The translations under genes were made by a program, and so were the position numbers. Below are positions 56,006-64,000 of a DNA stretch of 64,000 nucleotides, one piece after another (the first letter of the stretch is position 1; every line of letters begins with the position of its first letter). Source of the stretch: an uncultured Acidobacteriota bacterium (lineage in GTDB: Bacteria > Acidobacteriota > Vicinamibacteria > Vicinamibacterales > CAVVIG01); NCBI GenBank assembly GCA_963757355.1, contig CAVWRG010000003.1, positions 1,541,120 through 1,605,119 of the forward strand. The letters run 5' to 3'. Under the pieces are notes generated by a model. That model did not search any database. It worked only from the letters and a program-made list of their open reading frames with translations, and was not told where the DNA came from.

Positions 56006-56273
<268 letters not shown>

Positions 56274-56281
56274 AAGTCATA

Positions 56282-56620
56282 CTAGGTGTTGGGGATAGCG
56301 GATTTCGCATCCGCCGTCTCCAACATTTCTCCACGACCGCGGGGCACTCCCGAGCAATCGAGCAACCGAATCGCCATGTCCAGTGCAGCGGGACTGAGGT
56401 GCATGTACCGCTGTGTCGTTGAGAGATCCTTGTGCCCTGCCAAATCTTGGATGGCTCTGGCAGGCGCACCCCGCATGGATAGATGCGAACAGAATGTGCG
56501 GCGCAACCGATGGACGCCACTGTCACCGAGCTGAGCTCGTCGTGCCGCCCGCTCGACGTGATGTTTCACCATGTCCGCCGAAAGCGAAGCACAACAGGCG
56601 GGTATGACGTACTCAGCCAA
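56282..56620 (-). pseudogene. tyrosine recombinase/integrase, C-terminal catalytic fragment only
   Basis: ..GVHRLRRTFCSHLSMRGAPARAIQDLAGHKDLSTTQRYMHLSP (HxLR box, GH, catalytic Tyr). The frame is closed by TAG about 50 nt upstream. No box I Arg or N-terminal SAM-like domain is present. Confidence 0.75.
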
Positions 56621-57338
56621 TCTCGGACTGCCGCAACTTCTGCTTGTCTTGGCCGTGATCCTCGGGATCTACGGATTCATGCGACTGCGTTGATGCGAGA
56701 GTGGAAAGCAGCCCAATTGGCGGGCTAACAAAACGAGCTACCGATGGTAGTAAACGAGGATCGGTTTCGGGGAACGGTCGGCTCGGATCGGTTCGCCTTT
56801 CGACAGGCGTATCCGGAAAGGGCCAGAATCGCCCCGATCATCAGCACGGCTACAAGAAGGCGCCGCATGATTCGGATTATAGCCCACAGGCGACGGGCCT
56901 TTCAGGGGGAATGAGATGACGAAACGCTGGGAGCGCTCACACGCGAACGGTTGGACCGCAACGGTCCAGGCCGACGGTGAGTTCTTCAACACGTCGGCGC
57001 ACGAAGTCGGCGTTCCCGCCGCGCAGGCATGTCAGTCAGGGCATCGTTGACTCACGCCTGGCGCAACAGGTTGCCGATGGGAGAGTGCCAGCGCACGATT
57101 GTCAGTGCAGAGGGTGGGTTGAGCGAATGGAGACTATCCGTTGACGCGCGTCGAGGAATTCACGAGCCGTGATTTGACAAGGCACATTTACCCTTAACAC
57201 TGGATCGAGCCAACTCAAGGGCATTCGATCAGGGGATGTCGATCCCTGTGACAATCCGACGCTGATTCCGCTTGCGCCTGCGTTGCGTGTGGTTGCGGCT
57301 GCAGGCCGCGATCTAATATCCCACAAAGGGAGGTGACG

Positions 57339-57992
57339 ATGAGACTTGTCTTCAAAAAGGGTTTTGGGCTCGATACGATACCCTCTGACATCGCGATGTG
57401 GTTGCTAGAGCTTGAGAGCAGCACATACGCGTTTGTCGCGGATCAGGTGCCCGTTTCGATTTCCAGAGGGACCTTCGGCAACACTGACCAAGAACGTAAT
57501 TCAATCAATCAGTTCGTCTCAACGAGTCGTCGGCCATTCGGGCACAAGATTCAAACGTTGGATGTCACCTTTGAGATGGACGGGGCCATTCCTGAGGCCA
57601 TTAAGTCAGGCCAACATCAAATCGGTTCCGCCGATGCATTTGTCGAACCTTACATCGATCCCGGTTTTCACGCGGTGAGAGCGTTTGTCGAGACTTATCG
57701 GGACTGCAAATATCTCAGATATCGTGGCCAAGAACGTTGGACAAACCACCAAACTCTACTCCCACGAGTCACCGAGCAGGAATTCAGGACGTTGTTGTTT
57801 TACACCCTCGATGTAGGCGATGGTGAACCGTATGTCGGGTCTTTCAGCGACGGGAGGCTGAAGGTTAGCAACTTCTTAGGTAGTGATTTTACTGAGCAAC
57901 TTCGGCGCTTAAGCATCCTGTGCCAGCGGTGCGAAAGTTCATTGAAGAAGCGTGGGAACGTCTGTTTGATGAAGATTTCTCTGGTGCGGTAA
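57339..57992 (+). CDS. hypothetical protein (island gene 1), no recognisable family
   Basis: ATG preceded by GGGAGGTG Shine-Dalgarno. 217 aa. The last 30 or so codons overlap the next ORF in another frame and look non-native (..LCQRCESSLKKRGNVCLMKISLVR). Confidence 0.55.
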   Translation: MRLVFKKGFGLDTIPSDIAMWLLELESSTYAFVADQVPVSISRGTFGNTDQERNSINQFVSTSRRPFGHKIQTLDVTFEMDGAIPEAIKSGQHQIGSADAFVEPYIDPGFHAVRAFVETYRDCKYLRYRGQERWTNHQTLLPRVTEQEFRTLLFYTLDVGDGEPYVGSFSDGRLKVSNFLGSDFTEQLRRLSILCQRCESSLKKRGNVCLMKISLVR

Positions 57993-58294
57993 TTTACTCG
58001 GCTATTGCCATCGAGCGAGCGATGACCCGATTGTTGCGCAAAGAACTTGTGAACCGGGCCGTTGGGACAGCCTCGCAGATCGGGAAGGTCATCGAGGATA
58101 CCAGTAATCGATCGCTTTGCACCGTAGTGTTGGGTCTCCTTGGAATCGCGGATGACGGGTTGCGCCAACGGATGGTCAGTCTGTTTGAGCTCAGGAATTC
58201 GTTGGCTCACGGTCAGAAGTCAAACGTTCATCGTGAGGAGGCTGAGGCATCGATTCAGACATCTGAATCATTCCTTACGATTGCCTGGACCTAA
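57920..58294 (+). CDS. HEPN-like domain protein (Rx4H motif), either stand-alone or the frameshifted C-terminus of island gene 1
   Basis: About 124 aa, all-helical pattern: FIEEAWERLFDEDFSGAVIYSAIAIERAMTRLL.. then LFELRNSLAHGQ (R-N-S-L-A-H, i.e. Rx4H). GTG start. The frame is open from 57896. Confidence 0.55.
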   Translation: MPAVRKFIEEAWERLFDEDFSGAVIYSAIAIERAMTRLLRKELVNRAVGTASQIGKVIEDTSNRSLCTVVLGLLGIADDGLRQRMVSLFELRNSLAHGQKSNVHREEAEASIQTSESFLTIAWT

Positions 58295-58610
58295 GTCAAC
58301 GCGGGGCCTCGCAGATTCCCATCAGACATCGAACTCTCAATGCTCCTGCCACATACGAGACCACGCTCCCTTTGGTGTCACAGGGAGCGGCGACGGACAT
58401 GTGCCGGGACTGGCGGCACGCACGCAGGCGACAGGAGCGGACGACTGCGACAGTTGTGGGAGTGGAGCCCGCCTTTGAGTTGATCGAGGTGGCTAAAGAG
58501 GAACGCGGATATTTCGCGGACAGGTAACGATAAACCTCTCAGCTGCTCTCACTTGCAGAAGCACCTCCGGTTAGCAACCCGTTGTGCATCTACGCTATAG
58601 TCGTCTCGCC

Positions 58611-59879
58611 ATGGCAAAGCCTTTACAGCGACTGATCGTTTTTGTATCGGGCACCAGTGAGGCAGAGGCCGAGAAGGCTGCACTGAGGCGAATTGTCGAT
58701 GACATCAATCGGCGCGTGGAAAAGACGCACGGTATCACTCTGAGAGTGGTGGGTTGGCCGGACGATGGGCGACCGGGTGTTAGCACTGATCCTCAAGCAG
58801 AACTGAATCGCCAGTTTTCAGACTTCGACGTCTACATCGGAATGCTAGGCTCGAAGTTCGGATCACCCACGCCGAGGGCCGGGTCTGGCACAGAGGAGGA
58901 GTTCGAGTCGGCAATGCGCCGTTTTCAGAATGATTCAACTTCCGTACGGGTTCTCTTTTATTTCATGCGGACCGCTGCAGACCCATATTCGATCGACGCG
59001 GATCAGTTAAAAAGGGTCCAGCAGTTTCGGGAAACTTTGCCCTCCCGTGGCGTGGTCTATCGAGACTTCCACGATACCGCTAGCTTCACGAATCTTGTGC
59101 AGGACCACCTCTACTCAATCATAGAGGACGATTGGCGAGGTGATCGTTGGTCTGCTGTTGGTTCGGTACCCAGTCTCACTGGTGCCGTTCGTGACACCGA
59201 ACACCTGACCCACGACGGTGCGGGTCCCGCTGGTGCTTCCGAAGTTGATGTCAGTCTATCGAAGGAAGACGGCGAAGACGAATCTGGGTTTTTGGACCAT
59301 GTAGTGGCTTTCCACGAGGCAGTTGCTGTATTTACGGCGATTGTGGGAGAGATGCGCCATGACATGGACCGGATCAATGAACAGGTCCGCGCTCGCGCGA
59401 CAGAAGGCACCACGCTGAACGAAGAATTTAAGAGTGTCAAACATGTAGGAGGCAGTAGGGCGCAGCAGGAATTTGCCTCTAAGGCACGCATGAATGTCGA
59501 TGGGGCGGCAGCCAATCTCGACGATTTCGCTAGCGCGACGGCCGGGAATCTTGAGAAGTTCAAAGACAGTAATCGCTCGATGTTTGGCAGTTTGAGGGCG
59601 GGTTGGGGATCCGGATCAGAATTTGTGACTGAGCAGAACAGGAACGACAACGTGCGTGCGCTCCGCCAGTTGATTGCAGTCATCGAGAAAACAGGCGAGA
59701 GCATGACCGCTTTTCAGGCTAGCGTGAGCCGATTGCCTCTGTTGACGGGAAAAATCAAGCGAGCGCGTCGGCGGACAGCGCAGGTGTTGGGCGAGTTGAT
59801 AGCCGAATTTGCGTTGTCAGCCAATGAAGCACAGCGGATCGTTGATGAAATGGAGGGCGGTGTGAGTCCCGTTTCGTGA
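58611..59879 (+). CDS. DUF4062/TIR-like N-terminal domain protein with long helical C-terminal region (island gene 3)
   Basis: RLIVFVSGTSEAEAEKAALRRIVDDINR..FDVYIGMLGSKFGSPTP.AGSGTEEEFESAMR..VRVLFYF parallels the DUF4062 pattern VFISST..E.R.A...AI....D.yigIiG.RYGS....G.S.TE.EY..A. Residues from about 230 to 422 are helix-rich with no recognisable motif. Confidence 0.6.
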   Translation: MAKPLQRLIVFVSGTSEAEAEKAALRRIVDDINRRVEKTHGITLRVVGWPDDGRPGVSTDPQAELNRQFSDFDVYIGMLGSKFGSPTPRAGSGTEEEFESAMRRFQNDSTSVRVLFYFMRTAADPYSIDADQLKRVQQFRETLPSRGVVYRDFHDTASFTNLVQDHLYSIIEDDWRGDRWSAVGSVPSLTGAVRDTEHLTHDGAGPAGASEVDVSLSKEDGEDESGFLDHVVAFHEAVAVFTAIVGEMRHDMDRINEQVRARATEGTTLNEEFKSVKHVGGSRAQQEFASKARMNVDGAAANLDDFASATAGNLEKFKDSNRSMFGSLRAGWGSGSEFVTEQNRNDNVRALRQLIAVIEKTGESMTAFQASVSRLPLLTGKIKRARRRTAQVLGELIAEFALSANEAQRIVDEMEGGVSPVS

Positions 59880-60041
59880 AAGGCGACTGCGTGGATCGGC
59901 TGCCCAGGATATGTCCGCGTTTTGTCCGTAGGCTATCTTCGCCTTCCCGCCAAGTCACGCCCGAACGCAGACTAAGAATTGGCCAATTGTATAGGTGACA
60001 ATTAGGAGGGGCTGGTGCCCCACAACGTGCTCAGACGGCGT

Positions 60042-63000
60042 TCACTCGTACGAATTAGCAATGATGTTAAGCACCTTGTCGAGGTACTGGCCGACCTGCT
60101 TCGCGTCCGTCTGCGATCGAAGTTCGTACGAGATCATGTTGAACCAGTCGATTCGTGTCCTTGGACGCCGTCTGACCAATTCATCCAGCACGACTTGCCT
60201 CAGAAGGCCATCTCCCGAACCTGACTCGGGAAACGCCGCCTTGATGTCCGTGTCCCTCAGGTCGACGAGCTGCTGGCGAAGGGAATCAACCCGCTGCGCC
60301 CTCTCCAATTCCTTGCGGTAATCGGCGTCGCTGTTCAGCAAATCGTCGATCCGTTTGAGGAGTCGCTTGATTTCCGTGCTTCGACTCTTGAACCAGTCCG
60401 TTGACCAGATGCGGTGAATCTTCCAGCCCTGGTTCTCAAGAATTTCCTGTCGAAGGCGGTCGCGGTCGCGAGCAGAGCGTCCGGAATGGTAGCTTGCGCC
60501 GTCGCACTCGATTCCCAACAGGTACACGCCGGGCTTCGCAGGATGACGGACGCCAATGTCGATAAAGAAACCGGCTACGCCTACTTCTGGGACGACCTCG
60601 AATCCCTTTTCCCTGAGCACGGCGCCCACAGCGCGCTCAAAATCGTTCGACGACTGCCGCCCGCCATCGTCAGCGGCTTCCAGGATGCCGGTACGCGCGA
60701 ACGTCAGATACTGCTTGAAGGCGCGAAGGCCCCAGGCGCTGCCGCTATGGACCTGAATCTTTTCGGGGTCAATCGAGCTAAAGACTTCCGTCCTCTTCTT
60801 CGACCGCGTGAAAAGCACGTTGAGCCGTCGATGTCCATTCGGGCCGTTGATCGGGCCGAAGCGCTGGTATTGGTTTCCTTTTGCATCCGGCCCGTAGGTC
60901 GCCGAAATAAAGATCACGTCACGCTCATCGCCCTGAACGTTCTCGAGGTTCTTGATAAATAGCGGCTCCGACCCGCTCTCCATTCGTTCCTGATAAGCCA
61001 GCGCGAACGGCTCGGTCGTCAATCGGCGGTCGAGAAGGTCCTCGATCAGTTCTCGTTGCTCATAATTGAGCGCGACGACGCCGAGAGATTCATTCGGCCG
61101 ATTGTGCATGTGATCCAGAACAGCATCGACGACGGCCTCCGCCTCGGGCATATTGCGACGCTCGTCAAACACGCCTCGCGGAACGTGGTGATATTTGACG
61201 CCGAGGCTCGGGGATTCGTGATATGCGGACGGAAAGATGATCAGGTCTCCCTGATAGAACTCGCGATTGGAGAAGGCAATGAGGCTGTGGTGTCTCGACC
61301 GATAGTGCCACCGAAGCCGTCGGACAGGTTGGTACATCGTGCTGGCAATGTCGAGAATGCTTTCGCCTTCCTCTATTGCCGTCCGCTCGTCTTCATCCTC
61401 AAGGTCGTCATTATCGAAGGTGACTCTCTGGAAGAAATTTGTCGGCGGCAGCTGTTTTGGGTCGCCGACGATGACCAGCTGGCCACCCCTTGCGATAGAG
61501 CCGATGGCGTCCTCCGGCTTGAGCTGCGATGCCTCGTCCATGACGACGAGGTCAAAACGCAGTCTCTCCGGAATGAGGTACTGGGCTACCGAGAGCGGCC
61601 CCATCATGAAGCAGGGCTTCATGGCCTGGAGTGCGGTTGCAGACCGGCGCACCAGTTGTCGAATGGGAATGTGGCGTTTCTGCTTGCTGATCTCGTGCGT
61701 GATGAGCGCAAGCTCGCTCCAGCCTTTGACGGGACCGCTTTGATGACCGTATGGGATTTTGCGACGGTCGATGATGGCGGCGGCGCGTTCGCGATACAGT
61801 CGGATCGCTTCCTTGTCTGCCTTGGCGAACTGCTCCCGGACTTGGTCCTGGGTGGTGCCGCTGAAACCAAACAGATCGGCATGATCGGCGAAGGCGTATC
61901 GCGCGAGCGTGTTGTAAAAGACGAACTTGAAAGCGGTAGGAAGATGGTCTGGTTCGATGTGCCCGGCGTCAGCAAGACTCGTCAGCTTGTCGAGGCCGCG
62001 GCCTGCTCCGTCGGCTCGCGAGCGGATGAAGTGAAGCCATTGCGCCAGTTCGTCGCGGTTTTCGAGCGCGTGTGCCGCTCTCTTGGAAACATCCTCAAGT
62101 CTGTCGCCCTCATCGGCATGCCAGTCCAAGGATGACGAGCGGCTGCGAATGTCCTGGCGGCATTCCGCGATATCACGTGCGGCCTGCGCCGCTTGTTCAA
62201 GCCATTGAGACAACTGACGCAGGCGCGGCTCGTACTCGTCAGAGAGAAGCCAATCCGTCGCCGTCCCAGGAAGTGCGCTCTTCGCCAGGCGCTCGGCAAA
62301 ACGAACGGCGGCTTCAACCGGTCTCAGGTCGCTATCGATCTCGCAGTAGGAGTTGCCTAACATGTTGCGAACGTGCGCGTGAGCATCGATGCGGGCGATA
62401 CTCGCGCGATGACTCTCCGCCGTCTTCAACAGGCCGCCGATAGAGCTGATGGGAAGATCCGCCTTCAGGTCGGCCATCAGAAGACCCGCGATGGTTTCCT
62501 CCAGAAATGTGTTCGCCTCTTTCAACGCGTTCCGCAAGTCATCCAATGATCTTGGCGATGAGCCGTTCGGCCGCGCAAGCATCGGAAGGTCCAGGACGGC
62601 GCTGTGGAGGTCGTCAAGCGTCGCGCGATTGCTCTGATGCCCAGGCAGCGCCGCGCTGACCGCGTTGAGGCGCTCCGTTCTGGTCTTCAGAAGAAGATCT
62701 CGCAGCGCAACAGAAGAGTCATCATTGTCGGGGAGCAGAGCAAAGACTTGCTGGTACCAAGCGACGATGACTTGCCACTCATTCCATCTGGTCTGGCTCC
62801 CCTTGAAATGCGCTCCAAGAAGCTGCTGGCATCCCGCATCAGCGTCAAAGTCAGTCTGGGCCTGCAGGTGGTCGGCGATGGCCCGCAGGTGTTGCGCCAT
62901 AGATTTCCGCGATGCTTTCGCCGCGTGTCGCGCCAGAGCTTTGTAGGCGCGGCGGCCACTTCGATAGTCGCGGCCGAACAATCGCTGCCAGATGCCCGCG

Positions 63001-64000
63001 CCTTCAATCGCGGCTGCATGAGCGCGAAGTCGGACCGCGTCAGTATCCGCGAGCACCGACAGGTTGAAAGATTCGTCGAGCTTCCGATGTTCTTGCTCCA
63101 GTTCGCGCGTTCTGGCGGCGGCATCCTCGATGACTCGACCCGCGCCGTCCGACTCAAGGTTTGGTGTCCTTAAGTGAAACGCCTCGAAGGGTGCGCTTTC
63201 GAGCGCGCGCAGGCAGTCAAGAAGCCGTCGGATGTCTTGGGTGTCGAACGACACCTGAATTCCGAGAAGCGCGGTGAGGGCGGCAAGACAACTTTCTGCT
63301 TTTGAAAGAAGCTTCTCCGCCGCCCGGCCCCGTTCGAGGTCGTGGCGAAGCCGAAGGGAGTCGCTGCCCTCATGACCGCGGGCGGTCAGGACCGCGACCA
63401 TCTGGGCGAGGAATTCCCCGACATCCTTTCTCAGGAGCGGAGTGGAATTGCCAGCTGTGGTGGCAGCGGCAAGCGCCTGCCGTGTTGTGGAGGCATTCTC
63501 CACCGCTTCCATGAAGTCCAGCAGCGCAGCACGTGCGCGCGCATCCCGGCAAGGTACGAGGACATGTGACGGAAGCGGTTCGTTCACATCGGGCAACATG
63601 GTCAAAAGATCCGTGGCCATGTTGAGACCGTGCAAGGTGCAGGGCACTGCCACACCGACGTCCGCCAATGCCCGCTGCACGGGCGCGGCGTTTCCCACAG
63701 ATGAAACGAACCCCTCCAACAGGTCGCAGATGCGCTCCTGATCTTCAAAGCTGAGGGTCGCATTAATCCATGCCCACGGGTGCAGCTCAAGGCTCGAACA
63801 AGCCCGCAAAACGCCGCCGAGGTGCTGGGCATGTACGGCCAGGAAGTGCTCCGTTTGTGCGACGTCGGTGGGCGTAAATTGAATAACTGTCGCCAGGAGC
63901 AGCTTCTCCACGAGCGAGCGGTCAAACCGCAGTTCCTGGTACGCAACATCGCGCGCCCACAGAATGTCGAACACCGTCGCGTTGAAAGGCTGAAGCTCCT
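60042..64000 (-). CDS. large SF1 (Upf1/DNA2-like) helicase fused to Vsr/DUF559-type endonuclease and DUF3320-like tail; N-terminus beyond window
   Basis: Helicase motifs DLVVMDEASQ (II), VIVGDPKQLPP (III), LRWHYRSRHHSLIAFSN, VQGDERDVIFIS, RLNVLFTRSKKR (VI). Nuclease LLGIECDGASYHSGRSARDRDRLRQEILENQGWKIHRIWSTDWF. The frame remains open at the window edge, so Walker A is not seen. Confidence 0.85.
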   Translation of the reverse strand, partial: ELQPFNATVFDILWARDVAYQELRFDRSLVEKLLLATVIQFTPTDVAQTEHFLAVHAQHLGGVLRACSSLELHPWAWINATLSFEDQERICDLLEGFVSSVGNAAPVQRALADVGVAVPCTLHGLNMATDLLTMLPDVNEPLPSHVLVPCRDARARAALLDFMEAVENASTTRQALAAATTAGNSTPLLRKDVGEFLAQMVAVLTARGHEGSDSLRLRHDLERGRAAEKLLSKAESCLAALTALLGIQVSFDTQDIRRLLDCLRALESAPFEAFHLRTPNLESDGAGRVIEDAAARTRELEQEHRKLDESFNLSVLADTDAVRLRAHAAAIEGAGIWQRLFGRDYRSGRRAYKALARHAAKASRKSMAQHLRAIADHLQAQTDFDADAGCQQLLGAHFKGSQTRWNEWQVIVAWYQQVFALLPDNDDSSVALRDLLLKTRTERLNAVSAALPGHQSNRATLDDLHSAVLDLPMLARPNGSSPRSLDDLRNALKEANTFLEETIAGLLMADLKADLPISSIGGLLKTAESHRASIARIDAHAHVRNMLGNSYCEIDSDLRPVEAAVRFAERLAKSALPGTATDWLLSDEYEPRLRQLSQWLEQAAQAARDIAECRQDIRSRSSSLDWHADEGDRLEDVSKRAAHALENRDELAQWLHFIRSRADGAGRGLDKLTSLADAGHIEPDHLPTAFKFVFYNTLARYAFADHADLFGFSGTTQDQVREQFAKADKEAIRLYRERAAAIIDRRKIPYGHQSGPVKGWSELALITHEISKQKRHIPIRQLVRRSATALQAMKPCFMMGPLSVAQYLIPERLRFDLVVMDEASQLKPEDAIGSIARGGQLVIVGDPKQLPPTNFFQRVTFDNDDLEDEDERTAIEEGESILDIASTMYQPVRRLRWHYRSRHHSLIAFSNREFYQGDLIIFPSAYHESPSLGVKYHHVPRGVFDERRNMPEAEAVVDAVLDHMHNRPNESLGVVALNYEQRELIEDLLDRRLTTEPFALAYQERMESGSEPLFIKNLENVQGDERDVIFISATYGPDAKGNQYQRFGPINGPNGHRRLNVLFTRSKKRTEVFSSIDPEKIQVHSGSAWGLRAFKQYLTFARTGILEAADDGGRQSSNDFERAVGAVLREKGFEVVPEVGVAGFFIDIGVRHPAKPGVYLLGIECDGASYHSGRSARDRDRLRQEILENQGWKIHRIWSTDWFKSRSTEIKRLLKRIDDLLNSDADYRKELERAQRVDSLRQQLVDLRDTDIKAAFPESGSGDGLLRQVVLDELVRRRPRTRIDWFNMISYELRSQTDAKQVGQYLDKVLNIIANSYE

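Follow-up and report, generated by a model that had tools for sequence, protein, structure and literature searches.

We describe here a gene of an uncultured Acidobacteriota bacterium, located towards the end of a stretch of 64,000 nucleotides (contig CAVWRG010000003.1, positions 1,541,120 to 1,605,119; hereafter the window), which encodes a protein of 422 amino acids (aa) made of an N-terminal DUF4062 domain and a helical C-terminal auxiliary (AUX) domain. We think that this protein is probably (our rough estimate is 70%) an abortive-infection defence acting on its own, carried by a small island linked to a tRNA-Asp gene, and that AUX is probably the part of it that senses infection. This reading is built on the identity of the N-terminal domain, on its invariant active-site motif, on the predicted fold, on the inheritance of the gene as a single unit, on its island context and on the reuse of AUX with other effectors, all of which are established below. 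More tentatively, and with slightly less than even confidence, we propose that the four-helix AUX bundle is an undescribed and widespread infection-sensing module (at least 2,600 clusters) which defines a multi-effector defence family; in this proposal AUX would arm a DUF4062 NAD+ glycohydrolase (NADase), a PIN_8 nuclease, a CHAT protease or, by EAD7-EAD7 pairing, a membrane effector.

DUF4062 NADases have just been recognised as immune effectors common to bacteria and to the human vault protein TEP1. The domains of TEP1 and of KpSwz are TIR-like NADases that convert NAD+ into ADP-ribose (ADPR) and nicotinamide in a Glu-dependent manner (10.64898/2026.05.01.722283). Swarozyc is a single-gene system of Klebsiella, whose defence needs both the catalytic Glu and AUX; this AUX (an HTH/winged fold with a hairpin anchor, HTH standing for helix-turn-helix) binds the phage portal and turns the enzyme on, with abortive infection as the outcome (10.64898/2026.05.01.722283). 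Evangelion is a family of single-gene defences found on mobile elements, in which the DUF4062 core is conserved and AUX has diversified, and the defence provided by one of them, Eva01, is lost on mutating an N-terminal Phe, the Glu or a Trp, or on truncating AUX (10.64898/2026.06.25.731849).

The activation of DUF4062 proteins is known for one type of AUX, the portal-binding domain of Swarozyc. The present locus represents a second and much larger class of AUX, without Pfam coverage and apparently uncharacterised. Since AUX recurs with nuclease, protease and membrane effectors, knowing what triggers it would account for how a whole group of defence proteins is switched on and, if our proposal is true, AUX adds a compact sensor free of any NTPase to the known repertoire. 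The existence of cultured carriers makes the experiments feasible.

The gene and its DUF4062 domain

The open reading frame (ORF) is intact, with 422 codons from the ATG at 58611 to the TGA at 59877-59879. An independent assembly of the locus from a public run (a contig of 10.2 kb, called here L087) contains the same 422-aa gene, called with the same start, and M1 is shared as the start in at least 90% of the homologous sequences. A database search returned 93 homologues, most of them 400-440 aa long and aligning end to end with 40-50% identity. A scan for promoters and terminators around the gene gave nothing above chance. The AlphaFold2 (AF2) model of the full-length protein, obtained with 72 homologues as input, has a mean predicted local distance difference test (pLDDT) of 87 and a predicted template-modelling score (pTM) of 0.85.

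An earlier note, made from the letters of the window, had seen in this gene a DUF4062/TIR-like domain of about 150 residues joined by an acidic linker to a helix-rich half. This observation on the sequence is confirmed: the strings quoted in the note are all located in the protein (LIVFVSG at aa 8-14, FDVYIGMLGSKFGS at aa 71-84, GSGTEEEFESA at aa 91-101 and SKEDGEDESG at aa 217-226), and the last one does join the two halves, within a disordered acidic stretch. Residues 192-221 have a pLDDT below 50, i.e. are disordered, and the linker as a whole (aa 186-226) carries a net charge of about -8.

The assignment to the DUF4062 family also stands, the domain being longer than supposed (about 180 residues rather than about 150). 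PF13271 matches aa 10-101 with E=1.6e-5 and 25.4 bits, above the gathering score of 24.7. The score is marginal because the Pfam model spans only about half of the true DUF4062 domain (Swarozyc supplement, 10.64898/2026.05.01.722283). The N-terminus of the PADLOC profile PDC-S60 matches aa 10-173 with E=4.4e-31, and many homologues carry a precomputed PF13271 match. In the model, five parallel strands (residues 6-14, 42-48, 74-79, 113-119 and 150-153) alternate with helices, the last of which spans 156-174; this is what was expected of a TIR/flavodoxin-like fold, and pLDDT is mostly above 90. The link to TIR domains proper, which the earlier note had proposed to look for together with PF13271, was not recovered: no TIR-clan family (canonical TIR, TIR_2) appears at E<=1 in the Pfam scan of the protein. 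Foldseek with the full-length model finds no match below 1e-3, the flavodoxin-like folds and the TIR-STING structure 9lmq_D (probability 0.93, E=0.19) being weak matches. The relationship between DUF4062 and TIR is indeed a remote one (FFAS Z=-10.5; Swarozyc supplement, 10.64898/2026.05.01.722283).

Six residues (P55, G84, S92, G93, E97 and F139) are invariant across 156 complete N-domains, and several others are nearly so: F11 (88%), W49 (96%), Q62 (99%) and F98 (96%), as well as T94, Y117 and F118. The conservation of the glutamate, on which the earlier note had staked its assignment beforehand, is therefore complete, E97 being kept in 156/156 homologous N-domains; it is also invariant in a smaller set (72/72 sequences). 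Judging by the motif, E97-F98 would correspond to the Glu-aromatic catalytic region of KpSwz (E97A) and Eva01 (E87A), and the equivalent Glu is required in KpSwz and TEP1 (10.64898/2026.05.01.722283) and in Eva01 (10.64898/2026.06.25.731849). That the numbers E97 and W175/W176 are shared with KpSwz is a coincidence of numbering, to which we give no weight; the numbering of KpSwz includes about 15 residues that are removed in the active constructs (10.64898/2026.05.01.722283). The NAD-depletion role suggested by the earlier note is supported by homology to experimentally characterised DUF4062 NADases, and it is from this homology only that we infer the NADase chemistry of this particular protein.

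The AUX domain and its association with other effectors

The C-terminal half of the protein turned out to be as rich in helices as the earlier note had claimed. AF2 predicts four long ones (aa 227-276, 283-334, 341-373 and 380-414), and the AUX domain modelled alone has a pLDDT of 92.1 and a pTM of 0.85. This half has no match in Pfam, NCBIfam or PADLOC, and a Pfam scan of 24 AUX members gave no consistent family. The structural comparison envisaged in the note thus produced a confident bundle and no related fold: with both the full-length and the AUX-only models, Foldseek found nothing below 1e-3 in the PDB, nor in BFVD. The best geometric matches of AUX, none of them significant, are the STAT3 coiled-coil (query TM-score, TMq, 0.50), toxins of the ClyA family (0.42-0.48) and designed bundles, and a profile search against the PDB sequences returned designed or coiled-coil proteins only.

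The AUX family has a signature of its own: GxLD, AAxDLxxF and PxLT-x3-[KN]RA[KR]R. Over 210 AUX domains, the start of helix 1 is marked by G226 (98%), L228 (81%) and D229 (73%), and helix 2 by A300 (99%), within AAxDLxxF; the helix 3-4 region contains F368, which is part of the signature, followed by P376 (97%), T379 (91%), R384 (68%), A385 (83%) and R387 (67%). Considering the up-down-up-down order of the predicted helices, the tip between helices 1 and 2 and the loop between helices 3 and 4 would face the same way, away from the linker. A search with the AUX profile among 1.84 billion representative proteins gave 2,621 clusters at E<=1e-3 and 1,549 at E<=1e-10 (the clusters being 50% identity representatives), and a word-indexed profile search with the AUX alignment gave four proteins only and was uninformative. 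AUX diverges faster than the enzyme domain, with a mean pairwise identity of 33% versus 53%, the N-domain showing the higher identity in 99.9% of 2,556 pairs.

AUX is also found in proteins that lack the DUF4062 domain. The DUF4062 profile is matched by 194 of 226 AUX-carrying proteins, and three proteins that do not match it (P0172, P0220 and P0115) have another domain in its place, as seen in a survey of effector types over the best 150 matches of the AUX profile. In P0172 (520 aa), a protein that recurs on four contigs, AUX follows a PIN_8 nuclease domain (E=6.5e-63). In P0220 (405 aa) it follows a CHAT protease domain (E=1.2e-9), and in P0115 (288 aa), recurring on two contigs, an EAD7 effector-associated domain (E=2.2e-17). 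All three fusions exhibit an acidic run ahead of GxLD, and the G and D of this motif are invariant in them, as are the P, T, A and one R of the PxLT/basic motif. Some DUF4062-AUX proteins have in addition an N-terminal ribbon-helix-helix (RHH) or HTH domain.

The case of P0115 is more elaborate, as another gene starts 9 nucleotides (nt) 3' of it, whose 362-aa product combines a second EAD7 domain (E=4e-23) with two hydrophobic, predicted transmembrane helices. This cassette looks like a split version of the same design, in which AUX is linked via matching EAD7 adaptors to a membrane effector. Such a combination of one constant AUX with exchangeable killing domains is what one expects of a part that senses or regulates, not of an effector. 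The idea of the earlier note that the C-terminal half could be a sensor or an oligomerisation module is strengthened by these fusions to PIN_8, CHAT and EAD7. By analogy, our multi-effector proposal may be likened to the effector swapping of Avs or CBASS, here without an NTPase or a second messenger.

Comparison with known systems

The protein resembles Swarozyc in being a single polypeptide with an N-terminal DUF4062 domain bearing the (here predicted) catalytic Glu and a C-terminal AUX, as well as in its defence-island setting. By analogy, the expected output would be the hydrolysis of NAD+ to ADPR and nicotinamide, followed by abortive infection. The short strands that directly follow the final helix of the enzyme domain (W175, W180) may match the small intertwining sheet of KpSwz. 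However, the predicted model of the present AUX consists only of helices (four, each 33-52 residues long) and lacks both beta elements and a WY hairpin, and a disordered acidic linker takes the place of the helical stalk of KpSwz. The HTH/winged fold, the hairpin and the alpha-loop-beta element of the Swarozyc AUX are not seen in our model, and the two domains are probably non-homologous, as judged by setting a published description against a predicted model.

In the broad sense, the protein is an Evangelion: one gene, a DUF4062 core, a C-terminal region outside DUF4062 and no conserved partner. F11, W49/Q62, E97-F98 and W175 resemble, by position only and unaligned, the aromatic, Q/W/E, Glu-aromatic and later Trp motifs of Eva01. 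The AUX of Eva01 is short (truncation at L177, mutated F212), whereas it reaches about 190 residues here and has its own signature; moreover, the present gene is chromosomal, lies in an island and belongs to a high-GC environmental bacterium. A tblastn search against 72,556 plasmids gave 21 matches, restricted to the N-domain, with 24-29% identity and none extending beyond aa 179. At E<=1e-3, no Eva01-type match from Staphylococcus or Enterococcus was present among the organisms listed; the protein therefore belongs to a distant lineage and not to Eva01 itself. The trigger of Eva01 (recombination proteins or intermediates) is not transferable to it.

The closest profile match to the N-terminal 170 residues is PDC-S60, a group of DUF4062 proteins of about 906 aa found mostly in Bacteroidota. 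The alignment covers only positions 7-169 of the 906 of the profile, the remaining 730 or so having no counterpart here. Proteins of the PDC-S60 type (880-965 aa), many of which were recovered as relatives of the N-domain, have no AUX domain.

The effector-associated-domain systems, reportedly described by Kaur, Burroughs, Iyer and Aravind in 2020, are conflict proteins of modular build, in which one sensor is shared by exchangeable effectors. The likeness is that AUX is combined with a DUF4062 NADase, PIN_8, CHAT or an EAD7 adaptor pairing with an EAD7-tagged membrane protein; the difference is that there is no NTPase core here (STAND or other), the common module being a small all-helical bundle. 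As far as our searches could show, there is no published description of this bundle, and the AUX family and its reuse appear undescribed. The effector half, for its part, is already explained, because published work covers its DUF4062 relatives; this half and the overall logic are known, and the novelty of the former is lower than the earlier note assumed.

Proposed mechanism and points against it

In the mechanism that we propose, the N-terminal DUF4062 domain would be an NAD+ glycohydrolase with Glu97 as its catalytic residue, and the enzyme would be held inactive in uninfected cells. The four-helix bundle of AUX would detect a cue of infection (a phage protein or a structure associated with replication), and would then alter the self-assembly of the protein so that the NADase domains become arranged in an active form. 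The loss of NAD+ would halt the infected cell. The NADase chemistry, the requirement for AUX and the abortive phenotype are carried over here from experiments on relatives; as to AUX being a sensor, rather than a mere oligomerisation or autoinhibition scaffold, and to the nature of its trigger, this is what we infer.

Several points weigh against this mechanism. The defence role of this subfamily would itself come by analogy with relatives. Among four human DUF4062 proteins, TEP1 alone is an active NADase (10.64898/2026.05.01.722283), and an intact motif is therefore no guarantee of activity. Eva02 was unprotective among the Evangelion lineages tested (10.64898/2026.06.25.731849), which means that, with a given host-phage panel, some DUF4062 proteins can fail to register as defences. 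One homologue of our protein stands alone among fatty-acid and trehalose genes, outside any recognisable island. The fusions of AUX to alternative effectors number three among about 230 proteins, and each of them is a metagenomic gene call. Finally, the AUX fold is generic and, as Foldseek gave no match below 1e-3 for it, structure gives no hint of a ligand; rapid divergence is also common in helical bundles even when no arms race drives it.

Alternative explanations

The first alternative is that AUX is a constitutive scaffold for oligomerisation and autoinhibition, infection being sensed indirectly, for instance through a change in host physiology or the loss of a labile inhibitor. We consider this unlikely. 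Long antiparallel helical bundles commonly self-associate, and the best geometric match of AUX is a coiled-coil (that of STAT3, with a root-mean-square deviation of 5.3 Å); the most conserved AUX residues (G226, A300, P376 and T379) look structural, as helix caps or in packing; and oligomerisation is needed for the activity of TIR-like NADases (10.64898/2026.05.01.722283). On the other hand, AUX sets the specificity in the two systems that have been studied, since the AUX of KpSwz binds the portal and mutations in the AUX of Eva01 alter the phage spectrum. The divergence of AUX, much faster than that of the enzyme domain, also speaks for a sensor, and the conserved basic patch that follows the PxLT loop (aa 381-388) may be a binding surface.

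The roles of the two halves might also be reversed, with the helical half as the killer, a bundle of the ClyA/Hbl or apolipophorin kind which opens to damage the membrane, and DUF4062 as the sensing or regulatory part. This strikes us as improbable. MakB, AhlC, Hbl-B and ClyA do figure among the geometric Foldseek matches (TMq 0.42-0.48, none significant), weak matches to Bacillus_HBL and ApoLp-III are found in 2/24 and 3/24 AUX members, respectively, and helix 1 is fairly hydrophobic over its first 19 residues (Kyte-Doolittle value 1.62). However, none of these matches is significant (E of at least 0.068 for Foldseek and of at least 0.0018 in Pfam), and the bundle is highly charged, with no hydrophobic head, tongue or transmembrane segment. 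In addition, AUX accompanies three other warheads, enzymatic or adaptor, the EAD7 partner already bears membrane helices, and the putative catalytic Glu of the NADase is invariant.

The earlier note suggested an effector pair with the HEPN gene just upstream, of a nucleotide-signal or NAD-depletion style; in the signalling model, the DUF4062 domain would make a nucleotide signal that activates a HEPN RNase. Signalling through a nucleotide product is known from some TIR systems, Thoeris among them, and there is indeed an upstream HEPN-like ORF on the same strand with an Rx4H motif (RNSLAH). This ORF (57920-58294) encodes 124 aa, or 90 aa when read from the ATG at 58022, and its frame is open for only about 20 nt ahead of 57920. 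It contains no ligand-sensing domain, its Pfam HEPN scores are all below threshold (17.8 bits for the best one, versus a cutoff of 28.4), the PADLOC HEPN models give E values of about 1e-3, and a gap of 316 nt separates it from our gene. It overlaps a 219-aa ORF, itself an orphan, with no homologue in 5.8 billion clusters; what is seen here could be a decayed gene or an orphan module of two genes. A frameshifted fusion of the two ORFs is a further possibility, which has no bearing on our gene.

Neither the HEPN-like ORF nor the 219-aa one had a tblastn match at 82 loci that encode relatives of our protein, and clustering the neighbouring ORFs within 5 kb at 31 full-length homologue loci revealed no shared partner, the largest cluster comprising five loci at varying distances. 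From this absence of both a conserved neighbour and a match to either ORF we conclude that our gene is inherited alone. The partnership with HEPN is rejected on the lack of co-occurrence, the lack of a conserved neighbour and the sub-threshold HEPN scores, and the signalling model, largely refuted by the same lack of co-occurrence, seems to us very improbable, all the more so as KpSwz and TEP1 make ADPR and nicotinamide only and no cyclic products (10.64898/2026.05.01.722283).

Hardly credible, lastly, is a housekeeping enzyme of nucleotide metabolism, or one akin to nucleoside 2-deoxyribosyltransferases (NDT), with no role in conflict: DUF4062 is distantly similar to NDT families (10.64898/2026.05.01.722283) and one homologue sits among metabolic genes, but the patchy distribution, the low-GC island beside an Hhe-like gene and the sharing of AUX with the conflict domains PIN_8, CHAT and EAD7 all speak against it. 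The killer bundle, the HEPN model and the housekeeping enzyme are thus less likely than a single-protein abortive-infection defence.

Distribution and genomic context

The DUF4062-AUX architecture is present in Acidobacteriota, Planctomycetota, Nitrospirota, Chloroflexota, Bacteroidota, Pseudomonadota, Spirochaetia and KSB1, as well as in one metagenome-assembled genome of a methanogen. This patchy spread over many bacterial phyla and one archaeon is consistent with horizontal transfer. The cultured carriers are Simplicispira metamorpha DSM 1837, Riemerella columbina DSM 16469 and Hymenobacter sp. 15J16-1T3B, to which a more distant one, Acinetobacter kyonggiensis ANC 5109, can be added. No relatives were found in INPHARED phages or IMG/VR contigs, and this absence argues for a host rather than a phage origin.

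The locus forms a small island of defence genes next to a tRNA gene (Table 1). The GC content is 0.53-0.61 over 57000-64000, versus 0.62-0.72 over the preceding 56 kb, which is consistent with a recent horizontal acquisition of the island; the fall, from 0.65-0.70 to 0.53-0.58, sets in at about 57 kb. The low-GC stretch begins after tRNA-Val and tRNA-Asp genes, and the stacked att-like repeats that follow the latter look like the attachment-site scars of repeated integrations. A 44-nt segment from the 3' end of the integrase remnant recurs with 82% identity about 10 kb away (L087 10025-10068, i.e. about 66.3 kb in the numbering of the window and past its end); this second integrase-like remnant and the first bracket an island which holds our gene and a convergent gene encoding an Hhe-like anti-phage helicase-nuclease. 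The Hhe-like protein is collinear with the NCBIfam Hhe model NF042953 over the whole profile, with a score (1,554 bits) that remains below the 2,000-bit equivalog cut-off, and it also scores strongly against ProA and PDC-S37.

The neighbourhoods of the relatives are often rich in mobile elements or defence genes, and they vary from one locus to another: relaxase, AlpA and integrase; IS110; GmrSD_C, PIN_3 and HNH; a type III restriction-modification system with an SMC-like ATPase; HsdR with methylase remnants.

Table 1. Features of the locus (positions in the window) and of the related AUX genes discussed in the text (positions in their own contigs, L-numbers)
Feature	Position	Strand	Basis or remark
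Whole gene, 422-aa DUF4062 + helical AUX protein, stop included	58611..59879	+	ORF list and sequence
DUF4062 (NIR, TIR-like) domain, predicted NADase, aa 1-180	58611..59150	+	PF13271, PDC-S60 N-terminus, AF2 fold, invariant residues
Glu97 codon, predicted catalytic residue (motif S92-G93-T94-E-E-E97-F98)	58899..58901	+	invariant in 156/156 N-domains
Disordered acidic linker, aa 186-225	59166..59285	+	AF2 pLDDT and composition
AUX domain, aa 226-414, predicted bundle of four long helices without Pfam family	59286..59852	+	AF2, profile searches
GxLD motif (G226-F-L-D229), start of AUX helix 1	59286..59297	+	conservation in 210 AUX domains
PxLT loop and basic helix start (P376-L-L-T379-G-K-I-K-R384-A-R-R-R388), between AUX helices 3 and 4	59736..59774	+	conservation in 210 AUX domains
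219-aa ORF and HEPN-like ORF	57333-58294	+	73-nt overlap between both ORFs
tRNA-Asp	56006-56082		followed by two extra copies of the tRNA 3' end (ggctcgagtcccgtcgaccccgccaact) up to 56275, about 91 bp apart
Truncated tyrosine integrase	56282-56620	-	last ~65 positions of PF00589, E=8e-15
Hhe-like helicase-nuclease, 1,761 aa (DUF4011, AAA_11/12, MTES_1575)	60042-64000, complete in L087 3782-9067	-	NCBIfam NF042953
EAD7-AUX gene (P0115), then EAD7 membrane-helix gene	L093 125-991 and 1000-2088		two-gene cassette, 9 nt apart
PIN_8-AUX gene (P0172)	L084 6001-7563
CHAT-AUX gene (P0220)	L095 26-1243

Two observations on individual loci may be added. In L084, the gene encoding the PIN_8-AUX protein is flanked by two methylmalonyl-CoA mutase genes and an acetyltransferase gene, with no obvious island around it. 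In Salmonella Senftenberg NCTC10384 (NZ_LN868944.1; L083 3980-4552), a DUF4062 ORF of 190 aa comes directly after the terminase/portal/head module of a prophage and precedes an IS3 transposase; this may be a DUF4062 defence gene borne by the prophage and since truncated.

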